From: Escherichia phage vB_Eco_BCPEco_001
Direction: 5' to 3' (one strand)
Sequence record: PV295200.1
DNA: 64,000 bases
Shown piece by piece: positions 14,123 through 22,207 of the stretch. A program made the position numbers and the translations under genes. The notes beneath the pieces are model-generated. The model was not told where the DNA came from. It did not search any database and saw only the letters and a program-made list of their open reading frames with translations. The first letter of the stretch is position 1. Each line of letters starts with the position of its first letter.

Positions 14123-15138
14123 TAATTGAGGCCTGAGTATAAGGTGACTTATACTTGTAATCTATCTAAACGGGGAACCTCTCTAGTAGACAATCCCGTG
14201 CTAAATTGTAGGACTGCCCTTTAATAAATACTTCTATATTTAAAGAGGTATTTATGAAAAGCGGAATTTATCAGATTAAAAATACTTTAAACAATAAAGT
14301 ATATGTAGGAAGTGCTAAAGATTTTGAAAAGAGATGGAAGAGGCATTTTAAAGATTTAGAAAAAGGATGCCATTCTTCTATAAAGCTTCAGAGGTCTTTT
14401 AACAAACATGGTAATGTGTTTGAATGTTCTATTTTGGAAGAAATTCCATATGAGAAAGATTTGATTATTGAACGAGAAAATTTTTGGATTAAAGAGCTTA
14501 ATTCTAAAATTAATGGATACAATATTGCTGATGCAACGTTTGGTGATACATGTTCTACGCATCCATTAAAAGAAGAAATTATTAAGAAACGTTCTGAAAC
14601 TGTTAAAGCTAAGATGCTTAAACTTGGACCTGATGGTCGGAAAGCTCTTTACAGTAAACCCGGAAGTAAAAACGGGCGTTGGAATCCAGAAACCCATAAG
14701 TTTTGTAAGTGCGGTGTTCGCATACAAACTTCTGCTTATACTTGTAGTAAATGCAGAAATCGTTCAGGTGAAAATAATTCATTCTTTAATCATAAGCATT
14801 CAGACATAACTAAATCTAAAATATCAGAAAAGATGAAAGGTAAAAAGCCTAGTAATATTAAAAAGATTTCATGTGATGGGGTTATTTTTGATTGTGCAGC
14901 AGATGCAGCTAGACATTTTAAAATTTCGTCTGGATTAGTTACTTATCGTGTAAAATCTGATAAATGGAATTGGTTCTACATAAATGCCTAACGACTATCC
15001 CTTTGGGGAGTAGGGTCAAGTGACTCGAAACGATAGACAACTTGCTTTAACAAGTTGGAGATATAGTCTGATCTGCATGGTGACATGCAGCTGGATATAA
15101 TTCCGGGGTAAGATTAACGACCTTATCTGAACATAATG
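14123..15138 (+). mobile_element. group I self-splicing intron in td (1016 nt) carrying homing endonuclease I-TevI
   Basis: Exon ends ...TTGGGT; intron starts TAATTGAGGCCTGAG and ends ...ACATAATG (terminal G); contains conserved core blocks GTAGGGTCAAGTGACTCGAAA and ATATAGTCTGATCTGCATGGTGACATGCAGC. Confidence 0.9.
14254..14991 (+). CDS. I-TevI: intron-encoded GIY-YIG homing endonuclease I-TevI
   Basis: 245-aa ORF MKSGIYQIKNTLNNKVYVGSAKDFEKRWKRH... (GIY-YIG motif); located inside td intron. Confidence 0.9.
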   Translation: MKSGIYQIKNTLNNKVYVGSAKDFEKRWKRHFKDLEKGCHSSIKLQRSFNKHGNVFECSILEEIPYEKDLIIERENFWIKELNSKINGYNIADATFGDTCSTHPLKEEIIKKRSETVKAKMLKLGPDGRKALYSKPGSKNGRWNPETHKFCKCGVRIQTSAYTCSKCRNRSGENNSFFNHKHSDITKSKISEKMKGKKPSNIKKISCDGVIFDCAADAARHFKISSGLVTYRVKSDKWNWFYINA

Positions 15139-15450
15139 CTACCATTTAATATTGCATCATATGCTACGTTAGTTCATATTGTAGCTAAGATGTGTAATCT
15201 TATTCCAGGAGATTTGATATTTTCTGGTGGTAATACTCATATCTATATGAATCACGTAGAACAGTGTAAAGAAATTTTGAGGCGTGAACCTAAAGAGCTT
15301 TGTGAGCTGGTAATAAGTGGTCTACCTTATAAATTCCGATATCTTTCTACTAAAGAACAATTAAAATATGTTCTTAAACTTAGGCCTAAAGATTTCGTTC
15401 TTAACAACTATGTATCTCACCCGCCAATTAAAGGAAAGATGGCGGTATAA
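15139..15450 (+). CDS. td: thymidylate synthase, exon 2
   Basis: LPFNIASYATLVHIVAKMC... continues TS frame; exon1+exon2 = 286 aa as in T4 TS. Confidence 0.9.
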   Translation, partial: LPFNIASYATLVHIVAKMCNLIPGDLIFSGGNTHIYMNHVEQCKEILRREPKELCELVISGLPYKFRYLSTKEQLKYVLKLRPKDFVLNNYVSHPPIKGKMAV

Positions 15451-15737: not shown

Positions 15738-16017
15738 ATATAAATCCGACTTTGATGTTAATATTCACCGTGGTACATTTTGGGGAAATTACGTCGGTAA
15801 AGATGCTGGCAGCCGGGAGGCTGCCATTGAATTATTCAAAAAAGATTTTATACGTCGAATTAAATCCGGAGAAATAACTAAAGCACATTTAGAGCCTTTA
15901 CGTGGAATGAGGCTAGGATGCACATGTAAACCAAAGCCGTGTCATGGTGATATAATAGCTCATATAGTTAACCGACTGTTTAAAGACGATTTTCAAGTTG
16001 AGGACTTATGCAATTAA
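15691..16017 (+). CDS. hypothetical protein (nrdA.1-position ORF); start uncertain
   Basis: 108-aa ORF with Cys/His-rich C-terminus ([12 protein letters not shown]); overlaps previous ORF by 47 nt so the true start may be downstream. Confidence 0.45.
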
Positions 16018-18272
16018 TTAATGTTATCAAAAGTAGTGGTGTTTCTCAGAGCTTTGACCCGCAAAAAATTATTAAAGTTTTATCTTGGGCAGCTGAAGGA
16101 ACATCAGTAGATCCTTATGAATTATATGAAAATATTAAATCTTATCTCCGTGATGGAATGACAACTGATGATATTCAGACTATTGTCATTAAGGCCGCTG
16201 CGAATTCTATTTCGGTTGAAGAGCCTGATTATCAATATGTAGCTGCACGCTGTTTAATGTTCGCTCTTCGTAAGCATGTTTATGGGCAGTATGAACCACG
16301 TTCATTTATTGACCATATTTCTTACTGTGTAAATGAAGGTAAATACGACCCTGAATTGTTGTCAAAATATTCAGCAGAAGAAATTACATTTTTAGAATCA
16401 AAAATTAAGCACGAGCGGGATATGGAATTTACTTATTCCGGGGCGATGCAATTAAAAGAAAAATATCTAGTTAAAGATAAAACCACTGGTCAAATTTATG
16501 AAACTCCACAGTTTGCATTTATGACTATTGGAATGGCATTGCATCAAGATGAACCTGTTGATAGATTAAAACATGTTATTCGTTTTTATGAAGCAGTATC
16601 TACTCGACAGATTTCATTGCCAACTCCTATTATGGCTGGTTGTCGTACTCCAACTCGACAGTTTAGTTCATGCGTTGTTATTGAGGCAGGTGATTCATTA
16701 AAGTCTATCAATAAGGCTTCTGCTTCAATTGTTGAGTATATCTCCAAACGCGCTGGAATTGGTATTAACGTTGGTATGATTCGTGCCGAAGGTTCTAAGA
16801 TTGGCATGGGTGAAGTACGTCATACTGGTGTTATTCCTTTTTGGAAACATTTTCAGACTGCAGTTAAATCATGTTCACAGGGTGGAATTCGTGGCGGCGC
16901 TGCTACTGCTTATTATCCTATTTGGCATTTGGAAGTTGAAAATCTTCTCGTTTTGAAAAATAACAAAGGCGTAGAAGAAAACCGCATTCGTCATATGGAT
17001 TATGGCGTTCAACTGAATGATTTGATGATGGAACGTTTTGGAAAGAACGATTACATTACTTTGTTCAGTCCGCATGAAATGGGTGGCGAGCTTTATTATT
17101 CTTATTTTAAAGACCAAGACCGTTTCCGTGAATTATACGAAGCAGCAGAAAAAGACCCTAATATTCGTAAAAAGCGTATTAAAGCCCGTGAACTATTTGA
17201 ATTGCTCATGACTGAACGTTCAGGAACAGCAAGGATTTATGTACAGTTCATTGATAATACGAATAACTATACTCCGTTTATTCGTGAAAAGGCACCTATT
17301 CGTCAGAGTAACTTGTGCTGTGAAATTGCTATTCCAACAAATGATGTGAATAGTCCTGATGCTGAAATTGGATTGTGTACTCTCTCTGCATTCGTACTAG
17401 ATAATTTTGACTGGCAAGACCAAGATAAAATTAATGAATTGGCAGAAGTTCAAGTTCGTGCTCTTGATAATCTTTTGGATTACCAAGGATATCCAGTTCC
17501 TGAAGCAGAAAAAGCTAAAAAGCGTCGTAACCTCGGTGTAGGTGTTACAAACTATGCAGCTTGGCTGGCAAGTAACTTTGCTTCTTATGAAGATGCCAAC
17601 GATTTAACACATGAACTATTTGAGAGATTACAGTATGGACTCATTAAAGCATCCATTAAGCTCGCCAAAGAAAAAGGACCTTGCGAATATTATTCAGACA
17701 CTCGTTGGTCTCGAGGCGAATTACCTATCGACTGGTACAATAAAAAGATTGACCAAATCGCAGCTCCAAAATACGTTTGTGACTGGTCGTCGCTGCGGGA
17801 AGACCTTAAGCTCTTTGGCATCCGTAATAGCACATTATCAGCACTTATGCCATGTGAGTCATCTTCCCAAGTTTCTAACAGTACAAACGGTATCGAGCCT
17901 CCACGTGGACCAGTCTCTGTTAAAGAATCAAAAGAGGGCTCCTTTAATCAAGTCGTGCCCAATATTGAGCATAACATAGACCTTTACGACTATACATGGA
18001 AATTAGCTAAGAAAGGTAATAAACCTTATCTTACGCAGGTAGCTATTATGCTGAAATGGGTATGTCAATCAGCTTCAGCGAATACATACTATGACCCGCA
18101 GATTTTTCCAAAAGGAAAGGTTCCAATGTCAATAATGATTGATGACCTTTTGTATTTCTGGTATTTTGGCGGAAAAAATTTCTATTATCATAATACCCGT
18201 GATGGTTCTGGTACTGATGATTATGAAATAGAAACTCCAAAAGCTGAAGATTGTTCATCCTGTAAATTATGA
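16008..18272 (+). CDS. nrdA: ribonucleotide reductase large subunit
   Basis: 754-aa ORF, same length as T4 NrdA; class Ia RNR features. Confidence 0.95.
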   Translation: MQLINVIKSSGVSQSFDPQKIIKVLSWAAEGTSVDPYELYENIKSYLRDGMTTDDIQTIVIKAAANSISVEEPDYQYVAARCLMFALRKHVYGQYEPRSFIDHISYCVNEGKYDPELLSKYSAEEITFLESKIKHERDMEFTYSGAMQLKEKYLVKDKTTGQIYETPQFAFMTIGMALHQDEPVDRLKHVIRFYEAVSTRQISLPTPIMAGCRTPTRQFSSCVVIEAGDSLKSINKASASIVEYISKRAGIGINVGMIRAEGSKIGMGEVRHTGVIPFWKHFQTAVKSCSQGGIRGGAATAYYPIWHLEVENLLVLKNNKGVEENRIRHMDYGVQLNDLMMERFGKNDYITLFSPHEMGGELYYSYFKDQDRFRELYEAAEKDPNIRKKRIKARELFELLMTERSGTARIYVQFIDNTNNYTPFIREKAPIRQSNLCCEIAIPTNDVNSPDAEIGLCTLSAFVLDNFDWQDQDKINELAEVQVRALDNLLDYQGYPVPEAEKAKKRRNLGVGVTNYAAWLASNFASYEDANDLTHELFERLQYGLIKASIKLAKEKGPCEYYSDTRWSRGELPIDWYNKKIDQIAAPKYVCDWSSLREDLKLFGIRNSTLSALMPCESSSQVSNSTNGIEPPRGPVSVKESKEGSFNQVVPNIEHNIDLYDYTWKLAKKGNKPYLTQVAIMLKWVCQSASANTYYDPQIFPKGKVPMSIMIDDLLYFWYFGGKNFYYHNTRDGSGTDDYEIETPKAEDCSSCKL

Positions 18273-18323
18273 TATAATTTGACTCATGGACGAGTCACTA
18301 TCTATTAACTAAGTGGAAAATTT

Positions 18324-18999
18324 ATGAGCACAGTTTTTAATACAAACCCAGTTGATGTTTTAAAAGAACCTATGTTTTTTGGTTCAGGTCTTGGTATTGC
18401 GCGTTATGATATTCAACGGCATCGAGTATTTGAAGAACTTACTGAGAAATCTTTATCATTTTTCTGGCGTCCTGAAGAAGTAAACTTAATGATGGATGCT
18501 GCGCAATTTAATAAGCTTCCTCAATATCAGCAAAATATTTTTACTAACAACCTGAAGTATCAATCACTTTTGGATAGCATTCAGGGTCGTGCACCTTCTG
18601 CTGTACTTATGTCATTAATTTCAGACCCGAGTCTTGATACATGGGTTGCTACATGGACTTTTAGTGAAACTATTCACAGCCGTTCATATACACATATCAT
18701 GCGAAATCTTTATACTGATCCGTCAAAGGTATTTGATGAGATTGTATTAGATGAAGCTATTATGAAACGTGCTGAATCCATTGGACGCTATTATGATGAC
18801 GTTCTGATTAAAACCCGTGAATGGGAAAATGCTAAAGAATTTGTAGAACTAGCTAAAGAATCTCCTGATGCTGTCTTTCGTTTAAACCGAGCTATTAAAC
18901 AAGAAGCCGAAGCTAAACGTGCTTTAATGAAATCTCTTTACCTCTGTTTGCACGTTATTAATGCCTTAGAAGCAATTCGTTTTTATGTATCTTTTGCGT
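18324..18999 (+). CDS. nrdB: ribonucleotide reductase small subunit, exon 1
   Basis: MSTVFNTNPVDVLKEP...ALEAIRFYVSFA; 3' boundary inferred (exon ends in U; possible P1 pairing GCGU with intron GCGC); boundary +/- a few nt. Confidence 0.75.
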
Positions 19000-20089
19000 A
19001 AAATGCGCCTTTAAACGGTAACGTTTATCGAAAACTCCTTTAATTGCTGGAAAGTCCTTTATAGGAAAACTAGCAGCCAAGGTTTTGCTTGCACCTTTAA
19101 TTAGTATAATATAAATATGATTATACTTTTAAGAGGATGCACAATTGAACTATAGAAAAATTTGGATAGATGCTAACGGACCTATACCTAAAGATTCTGA
19201 TGGAAGAACATACGAAATCCATCATAAAGACGGTAACCGTGAAAATAATGATTTAGATAATTTGATGTGCCTTTCTATACAGGAACATTATGATATACAT
19301 TTAGCTCAAAAAGATTACCAGGCTTGTCATGCTATAAAGCTTAGAATGAAATATTCTCCTGAAGAAATTTCTGAATTAGCTTCTAAAGCCGCAAAATCTA
19401 GAGAAATCCAGATTTTTAATATCCCTGAAGTACGAGCTAAAAATATTGCCTCTATTAAATCTAAGATAGAAAATGGTACATTTCATCTTTTAGATGGTGA
19501 AATACAGCGTAAATCTAATTTAAATAGAGCTGCATTAGGTATACATAATTTTCAACAAGCTGAGCATATTGCAAAAGTTAAAGAACGCAATATTGCAGCT
19601 ATAAAAGAAGGTACTCATGTATTTTGCGGTGGTAAAATGCAGTCAGAAACTCAATCAAAACGGGTAAATGACGGTTCACATCATTTCTTATCAGAAGACC
19701 ATAAGAAAAGAACATCAGCAAAAACATTAGAAATGGTTAAGAACGGGACCCATCCTGCACAAAAAGAAATCACATGTGATTTCTGTGGTCACATTGGTAA
19801 AGGTCCTGGATTTTATCTAAAACATAATGACAGATGTAAATTAAATCCAAATAGAATTCAATTGAATTGTCCATATTGTGATAAGAAAGATTTATCACCA
19901 TCAACATATAAACGATGGCACGGCGACAATTGCAAAACAAGGTTCAACGACTAGTCTTCGGACGTAGGGTCAAGCGACTCGAAATGGGGAGAATCCCTCC
20001 GGGATTGTGATATAGTCTGGACTGCATGGTAACATGCAGCAGTTCATAAGAGAACGGGTTGAGAATTAGCGAGCTCAATCGAACATACG
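19000..20089 (+). mobile_element. group I self-splicing intron in nrdB (~1090 nt) carrying full-length HNH endonuclease I-TevIII
   Basis: Interrupts NrdB between ...YVSFA and (C)TFNFHKNMEIMEGNAKI; shares core blocks GTAGGGTCAAGCGACTCGAAA and ATATAGTCTGGACTGCATGGTAACATGCAGC with td intron. Confidence 0.8.
19145..19954 (+). CDS. I-TevIII: intron-encoded HNH homing endonuclease I-TevIII (full length)
   Basis: 269-aa ORF from TTG 19145 (AAGAGGA 7 nt upstream); HNH motif EIHHKDGNRENNDLDNLMCLSIQEH; C-terminal Cys clusters (CDFCGH, CPYCD). Confidence 0.8.
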   Translation: MNYRKIWIDANGPIPKDSDGRTYEIHHKDGNRENNDLDNLMCLSIQEHYDIHLAQKDYQACHAIKLRMKYSPEEISELASKAAKSREIQIFNIPEVRAKNIASIKSKIENGTFHLLDGEIQRKSNLNRAALGIHNFQQAEHIAKVKERNIAAIKEGTHVFCGGKMQSETQSKRVNDGSHHFLSEDHKKRTSAKTLEMVKNGTHPAQKEITCDFCGHIGKGPGFYLKHNDRCKLNPNRIQLNCPYCDKKDLSPSTYKRWHGDNCKTRFND

Positions 20090-20592
20090 GTACCTTTAAC
20101 TTCCATAAGAATATGGAAATTATGGAAGGTAATGCAAAGATTATGAAGTTCATTGCACGTGATGAGCAGCTTCATCTTAAAGGCACCCAATATATTATTC
20201 GTCAGCTTCAATCCGGTACTGATGGCGATGAATGGGTTAAAATTGCTCAAGAGTGTGAACAAGAAGCAGTTGATATTTTCATGGAAGTTAACCGCCAAGA
20301 AAAAGATTGGGCAGTTCATTTATTTAAAGATGGAGATGTTCCTGGATTAAATACAAATAGCATGTGGAGCTTTATTGATTACTTAACTGTATCTCGTATG
20401 AAGCAGTGTGGTCTTCCATGCCCAATTACCGATGCTCCGGTTAAACATCCATATCCTTGGATTCGTGAATATCTTAATTCTGATAATGTTCAATCTGCGC
20501 CACAAGAAGTAGAATTGTCATCTTACCTTGTTGCACAGATTGATAATGATGTTGATGATAAAGTTATGATGAGTTTTAAAAAATACTTTTAA
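20090..20592 (+). CDS. nrdB: ribonucleotide reductase small subunit, exon 2
   Basis: ...MEGNAKIMKFIARDEQLHLKGTQYI... continues RNR R2 frame to stop at 20592; 5' boundary inferred. Confidence 0.75.
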
Positions 20593-20596
20593 GGAG

Positions 20597-20619: not shown

Positions 20620-22207
<1,588 letters not shown>

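Follow-up and report, generated by a model that had tools for sequence, protein, structure and literature searches.

The nrdB gene of Escherichia phage vB_Eco_BCPEco_001, analyzed here in a window of 64,000 nucleotides from sequence record PV295200.1, is interrupted by an insertion that carries an open reading frame of its own. The question raised by this locus is what kind of element the insertion represents, and whether it still encodes a working homing endonuclease. The original prediction described a ~1090-nt group I intron at 19000-20089 containing a full-length HNH endonuclease ORF, and took the intact state of this ORF as a sign of an active homing system. The analysis presented here supports this reading, and the segment 19000..20089 is almost certainly an undeleted, RB3-type allele of the T-even nrdB group IA self-splicing intron, with an intact I-TevIII gene in its P6a loop. 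An nrdB intron encoding I-TevIII is already known and is common in sequenced phages, and the identical sequence is present in GenBank.

The nrdB frame opens at 18324, but reading through into the insertion leads to a TAA stop at 18999-19001, and the frame is picked up again near 20090 in a different register. To delimit the insertion, the window was aligned with nrdB of phage HP3, which lacks the intron, and with the T4 and RB3 genes, which are interrupted. The comparison with HP3 placed the insert at 19000..20089 (1090 nt), so that the predicted limits were right to the base. When either boundary is shifted by one base the HP3 sequence is no longer recovered, and the intron boundaries are therefore unambiguous. 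The resulting layout of the gene is the following:

18324..18999, plus strand: nrdB exon 1, 676 nt, ending ...TTTGCGT, from the alignment with HP3, T4 and RB3.
19000..20089, plus strand: nrdB intron, group IA, 1090 nt, AAAAUGCGCC ... CGAACAUACG, its last base being the terminal G.
20090..20592, plus strand: nrdB exon 2, starting GTACC and ending with the TAA stop, 503 nt in all.

The peptides flanking the insert are ...RFYVSFA before it and TFNFHKNMEIMEGNAKI after it. Both had been named correctly in the original prediction, which nevertheless left out a Cys codon split over the exon junction, with its first base (T18999) in exon 1 and GT in exon 2. The predicted spliced junction would read ...UUUGCGU followed directly by GUACCUUU. 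Joined in this way, NrdB comprises 392 aa, 388 of which (99%) are identical to HP3 NrdB in a gapless alignment, and the protein also aligns across the junction with the E. coli R2 subunit (...NALEAIRFYVSFAC joined to TFNF, versus NALEAIRFYVSFACSFAF in E. coli; E=2.5e-126). As had been suspected, the protein is slightly longer than its T4 counterpart, for which arithmetic gives 388 aa (subtracting the 598-nt intron from the 1765-nt join leaves 1167 nt). The 4-aa difference is explained by a variable patch at ~18836-18915, different and shorter in T4, which is distant from the splice sites and unrelated to them; the 392-aa form is common to the window, RB3 and HP3. An intein was also considered as an explanation for the insert and was rejected, since the insert does not encode protein in the nrdB frame and the stop codon mentioned above closes that frame at its very start.

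Several GenBank records show two NrdB CDSs at this place, with a 'hypothetical protein' or a 'homing endonuclease' annotated between them. The records of Shigella phages SHFML-11 and vB_Shso_BCPShso_001 and of Salmonella phage vB_Sen_BCPSen_003, which carry the same element, likewise split nrdB into two CDSs with no join. Taken literally, such annotations would mean that nrdB truly consists of two genes (nrdB_1 and nrdB_2) separated by a free-standing HNH cassette, without RNA splicing. However, no start codon or RBS is found for exon 2 at the junction, joining of the exons restores the conserved FYVSFAC motif, the curated T4 and RB3 records carry a joined CDS, and the sequences flanking the ORF make up a complete group I core that covaries strongly (see below), all of which makes the existence of two separate genes vanishingly improbable. 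Many public phage records, then, mis-annotate nrdB as two genes.

The interpretation of the insert as a self-splicing intron was examined at the level of RNA structure. The structure was drawn by hand from P1 to P9.2 and then tested by covariation, because an MFE fold cannot give both helices of the P3/P7 pseudoknot. Its elements are listed below:

18996..19008, plus strand: P1, formed by exon GCGU (18996-18999) and guide GCGC (19005-19008).
19012..19027, plus strand: P2 hairpin, UAAACG-GUAA-CGUUUA, with all 6 pairs changed on both sides.
19035..19088, plus strand: 5' half of the core, with the P3 5' strand (19035-40), P4 (19044-50/19070-76), P5 (19055-58/19063-66), the P6 5' strand (19077-78) and the P6a 5' strand (19082-88).
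19089..19931, plus strand: L6a, an 843-nt loop closed by P6a, which houses most of the I-TevIII ORF together with its regulatory region.
19932..20080, plus strand: 3' half of the core and periphery, with P6a' (19932-38), P6' (19941-42), P7 (19949-53/20013-17), P7.1 (19954-63), P7.2 (19967-80), P3' (19986-91) and P8 (19992-20006), followed by P9 (20022-39), P9.1 (20042-55) and P9.2 (20057-80).

The 5' splice site is marked by the wobble U18999-G19005, a U-G pair in 9 of the 10 aligned introns with letters at this position, and the 3' splice site by G20089, the terminal guanosine, whose place is set by the intronless HP3 allele. P6a', P6', J6/7 and P7 (5' strand) share sequence with the final 23 nt of the ORF (19932-19954), whose TAG stop overlaps the last bases of P7.

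Covariation was evaluated over 11 introns, comprising six T-even nrdB cores from which the ORF loop had been removed and the introns of Twort, SPG24, EF5, phiKZ and A147. Standard pairs occupied 95.6% of the pair cells, as against 35-44% in controls in which the 3' partners were slid by 1-3 columns. Changes on both sides were found in 40 of the 73 pairs, and none of 500 shuffles matched the observed values. Pairing across the set was complete (100%) in P3, P4, P5 (three aligned pairs), P6 and P7 and reached 95.5% in P8, with compensatory changes in P3 (4 pairs), P4 (3), P5 (2), P6 (1), P6a (7) and P8 (5). P7 was invariant, as expected of the guanosine-binding helix, and P7.1 and P7.2 were 93.9% and 90.9% paired, also with compensatory changes. 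Extra hairpins of this type between P7 and P3' are the hallmark of subgroup IA in the Michel-Westhof classification. The pair counts, the invariance of P7, the U-G pair at the splice site and the terminal G20089 together indicate the fold of a subgroup IA group I intron, and the nrdB insert is confidently predicted to adopt it, P3/P7 pseudoknot included. The MFE fold of an ORF-deleted core, in which the P6a loop was swapped for GAAA, contained P1, P2 (in some sequences), P4-P6a, P7.1, P7.2, P9, P9.1 and P9.2.

The assignment to group I, already made in the original prediction, draws further support from the Rfam family Intron_gpI and from identity to the T4 core. An Rfam scan of the whole window at gathering thresholds returned no match, which does not count against an intron; the threshold serves detection and does not define the class biologically. 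A local scan gave Intron_gpI (RF00028) 35.7 bits (E=3.7e-7; gathering score 50), with the 3' half (J6/7, P7, P3', P8, P9) correctly aligned and the 5' half forced onto the ORF. The score falls below the threshold because the 843-nt ORF loop splits the two halves of the core. Indeed, the nrdB introns of T4 and AV118, which retain ORF remnants, also miss the RF00028 threshold, and the ORF-less introns of Twort, SPG24, EF5, phiKZ and A147 pass it with 87-97 bits each. The td intron of the window falls short as well (42.5 bits), so that the Rfam gathering threshold misses both ORF-bearing introns of this DNA. When blastn was run with the ORF-deleted core, the intron of orf142 of Staphylococcus phage Twort was found with 71.8% identity over 99% of the query. 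The ORF-less introns (Twort orf142 intron 2, SPG24, EF5, phiKZ and A147) share a homologous core, P1-P9 including P7.1/P7.2, but they reside in other host genes and are devoid of P9.1/P9.2 and of an endonuclease ORF.

The reading frame lodged in the P6a loop, described originally as a 269-codon ORF with an HNH motif and C-terminal Cys clusters, was recovered with all of these features, and the Cys clusters correspond to two CX2CX12-13HX3C motifs, that is, DNA-binding zinc fingers:

19145..19954, plus strand: I-TevIII ORF, TTG start, 269 aa followed by TAG, containing EIHHKDGNRENNDLDNLMCLSIQEH.
19220-19288, plus strand: HNH motif, H26..H48.
19775-19837, plus strand: zinc finger 1, residues 211-231, CX2CX12HX3C.
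19868-19933, plus strand: zinc finger 2, residues 242-263, CX2CX13HX3C.

The TTG lies 8 nt downstream of AAGAGG, and the same TTG is the start of the annotated RB3 I-TevIII; a start codon of this kind implies low translation efficiency. Residues 4-48 match Pfam HNH_3 (E=6e-13), and the whole protein (1-269/269) matches PHROG 12324, 'intron-like DNA endonuclease' (E=5.6e-193). These matches, together with the fact that three deposited phage genomes agree with the region in 100% of its nucleotides, argue against a pattern arisen by chance. Searching the I-TevIII sequence against PDB chains yielded nothing meaningful (top E=0.48, glucosamine-6-phosphate deaminase); at the level of sequence, no relative with a solved structure is detectable. 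A Pfam FlgM match (residues 74-114, 26.6 bits with a cut-off of 25) was treated as a chance likeness of a helical repeat.

The RB3 nrdB intron and its I-TevIII were reportedly described by Eddy and Gold in 1991. The enzyme was later characterized biochemically (Robbins et al., 2007; PMC1865063), and it served here as the reference for ORF integrity. The two proteins are of equal length and align without gaps, with 266 of 269 residues identical. The three substitutions are D23Y, V129A and A265T, RB3 I-TevIII carrying D23, V129 and A265. T265 is also found in HY03 and T4, whereas A129 is absent from the three other full-length alleles examined and is particular to the allele group of the window. 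Mutations H26A, H27A, N39A and H48A each abolish cleavage by the RB3 enzyme, and the double mutations C211A/C214A and C242A/C245A abolish its zinc and DNA binding (PMC1865063). H26, H27, N39, H48, C211, C214, C242 and C245 are all present in the window protein, and both zinc fingers are invariant among four alleles. Between full-length I-TevIII alleles, dN/dS ranges from 0.09 to 0.24 with dS up to 0.58, indicating that the ORF is maintained by purifying selection. The claim of an intact ORF thus held on alignment, and by these comparisons the ORF of the window evidently encodes an intact I-TevIII.

Upstream of the ORF, and still within L6a, the following regulatory elements were identified:

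19090..19141, plus strand: SD-sequestering hairpin, dG -14.9 kcal/mol, z -3.3.
19110..19117, plus strand: late-promoter box of the T4 type, TATAAATA, in the hairpin loop, 28 nt upstream of the start codon.
19091..19110, plus strand: putative I-TevIII operator, matching the opening 20 nt of exon 2 at 14/20 positions.

The hairpin pairs the Shine-Dalgarno sequence AGAGG (19132-19136) with CCUUU (19094-19098). Late-promoter boxes number 20 in the window, compared with 9 expected by chance. Early and middle transcripts of the three T4 intron ORFs have their RBS sequestered; late transcripts start inside the hairpin, which frees the RBS (PMC2988022). The arrangement of hairpin and promoter at the I-TevIII gene of the window is that of these T4 ORFs (PMC2988022). 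The segment 19091-19110 is the best match within the whole intron to the start of exon 2, which forms half of the homing site; an intronic operator for autorepression by I-TevIII has been proposed, not demonstrated (PMC2988022).

The genomic surroundings place the element in a lineage other than laboratory T4, in agreement with the original prediction. The gene run is T4-like, with nrdA (16008..18272), nrdB, denA (20620..21030) and rnlA. In T4, however, mobE and nrdB.1 lie upstream of nrdB, and the nrdA-nrdB interval of the window contains neither. RB3 has mobE between nrdA and nrdB, whereas SHFML-11 shows the same mobE-less junction as the window. Over 24 kb, the nearest records are vB_Sen_BCPSen_003 (99.6%), vB_Shso_BCPShso_001 (99.2%) and SHFML-11 (98.6%), and the region 18900-20200 is 100% identical in all three. 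The source phage can thus be assigned, by sequence comparison, to Tequatrovirus, and within it to the SHFML-11 type.

Aligning the intron with those of T4 and RB3 gave two distinct relationships. The T4 intron (598 nt) uses the same splice sites and is equal to that of the window minus 491 nt and minus one A (19063, in P5/L5), the rest being 100% identical; this bears out the claim that T4 carries a deleted, inactive ORF, and the T4 record itself labels its I-TevIII ORF as defective. RB3 has the same insertion site and architecture: its P6a loop holds an ORF of 269 aa that starts with TTG, and promoter, hairpin and SD are the same, at 98.5% nucleotide identity over intron and flanks. The RB3 intron measures 1091 nt, with one extra A near its 3' end. 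Differences in the RB3 core preserve the structure: P6a has a U-G wobble, the loop of P8 is altered, and P9 shows a compensatory G-C to A-U exchange plus a G-C to G-U change.

It could still be argued that the intron splices while its I-TevIII allele is dead or unexpressed, a passive passenger that would persist through vertical descent or through co-conversion by other nucleases. The window protein differs at three residues from the sole enzyme tested, and one of the substitutions, D23Y, lies three residues before H26; Y23 is nevertheless also found in NP4 and HY03, which makes the D23 of RB3 the outlier. The TTG start codon and the commonness of degenerate alleles would also fit a silent gene, as would the feebleness of the RB3 enzyme itself, which is weak and labile (~2 U/ug, Kd ~0.8 uM; PMC1865063). 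On the other hand, the catalytic and zinc-binding residues defined by mutation are all intact, the full-length ORF is subject to purifying selection (dN/dS ~0.1), and promoter, SD and hairpin are intact, unlike in the three G8-type deleted alleles examined, which have lost 6 nt of the promoter box. Moreover, the defunct T4 intron is mobilized only in trans, by MobE (PMC2790892), and the window offers no neighboring mobE for mobilization of this kind. As mobE is missing between nrdA and nrdB, any mobility of this intron must rely on I-TevIII. A dead passenger is therefore very unlikely, and an intact I-TevIII gene in a self-splicing intron remains the preferred explanation. The enzyme is likely active, but, given that RB3 I-TevIII is weak and labile, 'active' could mean modest activity only. 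For comparison, homing of the RB3 intron in crosses, which depended on the endonuclease, was 4.3% versus <0.1% (PMC1865063).

Splicing, expression timing, cleavage and homing would proceed in the window as they do in the T4 and RB3 experiments from which they are carried over. The nrdB transcript would fold into the P1-P9.2 ribozyme and excise itself with a guanosine cofactor, and ligation of U18999 to G20090 would restore the Cys codon and the 392-aa R2 subunit. In early and middle pre-mRNA, the ribosome-binding site of I-TevIII would be locked in the hairpin, whereas late transcripts initiated from TATAAATA would lack the 5' arm of the hairpin and allow the TTG-initiated protein of 269 aa to be made. 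This protein, with its N-terminal HNH nuclease and two C-terminal zinc fingers, would act as a dimer. During mixed infection it would bind intronless nrdB across the exon junction and cut 14 and 16 bp upstream, producing ends with 3' overhangs of 2 nt. The corresponding position is predicted to be the following:

18983..18986, plus strand: position in exon 1 placed by counting from PMC1865063.

Double-strand-break repair from an intron-bearing genome would then copy the intron and flanking exon into the cut allele, and the intron-bearing allele would itself be immune because its recognition site is split by the intron.

Two known systems help to place this mechanism. The td intron with I-TevI, known from T4, is also present in the window (~14.1-15.1 kb), and, like the nrdB intron, it belongs to group IA, interrupts a gene of nucleotide metabolism and has an endonuclease ORF inside it; both introns also carry a late promoter and a hairpin that sequesters the RBS (PMC2988022). 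The enzymes differ, I-TevI being a monomeric GIY-YIG endonuclease that cuts 23/25 nt upstream and I-TevIII a dimeric HNH endonuclease that cuts 14/16 bp upstream. I-HmuI of phage SPO1 and I-TevIII are both HNH enzymes encoded in introns, and both have extended DNA-binding regions (PMC1865063), but I-TevIII breaks both strands as a dimer and has two zinc fingers.

Among the 686 phage records that matched a 1301-nt query, 84 contained the full-length intron and ORF, with coverage of 80% or more of the query taken as the criterion. Deleted forms and many intronless alleles also turned up in a sample drawn at even intervals from the ranked matches. The same intron site is used in Tequatrovirus, in Gelderlandvirus (NP4, full length) and in Mosigvirus (AV118, deleted). 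This patchy distribution appears to be the footprint of a homing element.

The deleted forms are of particular relevance to the history of the T4 intron, which lacks the following segment:

19209..19699, plus strand: segment missing from laboratory T4 and RB55, 491 nt.

The deletion is flanked by the imperfect repeats GAAGAACATA and GAAGACCATA, takes codons 22-185, and with them the HNH motif and the greater part of the linker, and shifts the frame. A 491-nt deletion between GAAGA[A/C]CATA repeats is found in T4/RB55 and also in G8/LH2/FL23, which keep the other repeat copy, and AV118 has a 504-nt deletion of the HNH half. The zinc-finger half is kept in both the 491-nt and the 504-nt deletions. 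At least two losses of the HNH half of I-TevIII have taken place at this one short-repeat hot spot. Since 598 of the 598 retained bases of the T4 intron are identical, the laboratory-T4 intron may have arisen from the window allele as its intact progenitor.

What the window adds to the known account is an allele that corresponds exactly to the T4 intron but is undeleted, together with the recurrent loss of the HNH half at a repeat hot spot. In its mobE-free background, this allele would be a convenient isogenic reagent for homing experiments. It is conceivable, albeit unlikely, that the truncated zinc-finger protein is not debris but is kept by selection, for instance because it binds DNA at the nrdB target or operator and acts there as repressor or protector. 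If this were true, the mobE-less allele of the window would represent the autonomous stage in a life cycle through which the homing endonuclease passes repeatedly.

Complete identity was found between the intron of laboratory T4 and the corresponding bases of the window intron (598/598 bases, compared across 19000-20089), whereas the RB3 intron differs from that of the window at more than 10 positions. Judged by sequence, the window allele models the T4 progenitor more closely than the RB3 allele does.

The alleles lacking part of I-TevIII (region 19203-19715; loci L003, L007 and L013-L016) represent at least two types of deletion, and possibly three, at the following window positions.

19209-19699, 491 nt, deletion in T4 and RB55
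19203-19693, 491 nt, deletion in G8, LH2 and FL23
19204-19707, 504 nt, deletion in AV118 (Mosigvirus), between AAGAACAT repeats

The deletion in G8, LH2 and FL23 involves the same GAAGA[A/C]CATA repeat as that of T4 and RB55, with the opposite copy retained. In all three groups, the HNH half has been lost and the zinc-finger half kept. Alterations were also detected at the late-promoter box of the ORF, TATAAATA (region 19108-19118; loci L013, L014 and L015), which is short of 6 nt in the deleted alleles of G8, LH2 and FL23 and carries small insertions in AV118; the late promoter is undamaged in the full-length alleles examined. Within the linker and DNA-binding region of the intact protein (residues ~95-207; 19427-19765), five tandem units of 21-24 aa were recognised, each ending with a G-(T/S/I)-H/F-x-F-like motif (at residues 111, 132, 156, 177 and 201). 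The Pfam family FlgM matched marginally at residues 74-114, scoring 26.6 bits where the cut-off is 25.

The nrdA-nrdB spacer of the window comprises only 51 nt (18273-18323) and contains neither mobE, a free-standing HNH gene, nor the nrdB.1 of T4. The spacers of SHFML-11 and AV118 likewise lack mobE, but those of T4, RB3, HY03 and NP4 carry it, accompanied in T4 by nrdB.1. Intact I-TevIII is therefore found both with and without mobE. Within nrdB, a variable patch at about 18836-18915 differs in sequence in T4, where it is a net 12 nt shorter, which explains why NrdB has 388 aa in T4 versus 392 aa in the window; this patch aligns to a gapped, poorly conserved part of E. coli R2. In GenBank phage records (the database matches H1, H2, H3, H7 and H8, among others), nrdB is often annotated as two CDSs, nrdB_1 and nrdB_2, with a 'hypothetical protein' placed between them and no joined CDS with an intron. 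Two other genes of the window, denA downstream of nrdB and td, which is likewise split by an insert (~14126-15135), are arranged as follows.

20620-21030, denA (endonuclease II)
13574 to about 14125, first td exon
14254-14991, ORF of the td insert (245 aa, N-terminus MKSGIYQIKN...)
about 15136 to 15450, second td exon

ORF calling set the denA start at a GTG at 20596, which is probably too far upstream; the RB3 annotation uses the ATG equivalent to 20620. The gene product matches Pfam GIY-YIG weakly (E=4.8e-6). The td-insert ORF encodes what we take to be the GIY-YIG endonuclease I-TevI, and the insert matches Rfam Intron_gpI at 14860-15090 (42.5 bits, E=3.3e-9), below the gathering score, as was the case for the nrdB intron.

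Short matches to the P7'-P9.2 segment of the nrdB intron (20009-20087; 82-94% identity) were found in unrelated Pectobacterium, Klebsiella and Yersinia phages, some of them T7-like (about 40 kb), and some lie near DNA polymerase or HNH genes. These matches suggest that related group I intron cores are present in these phages.
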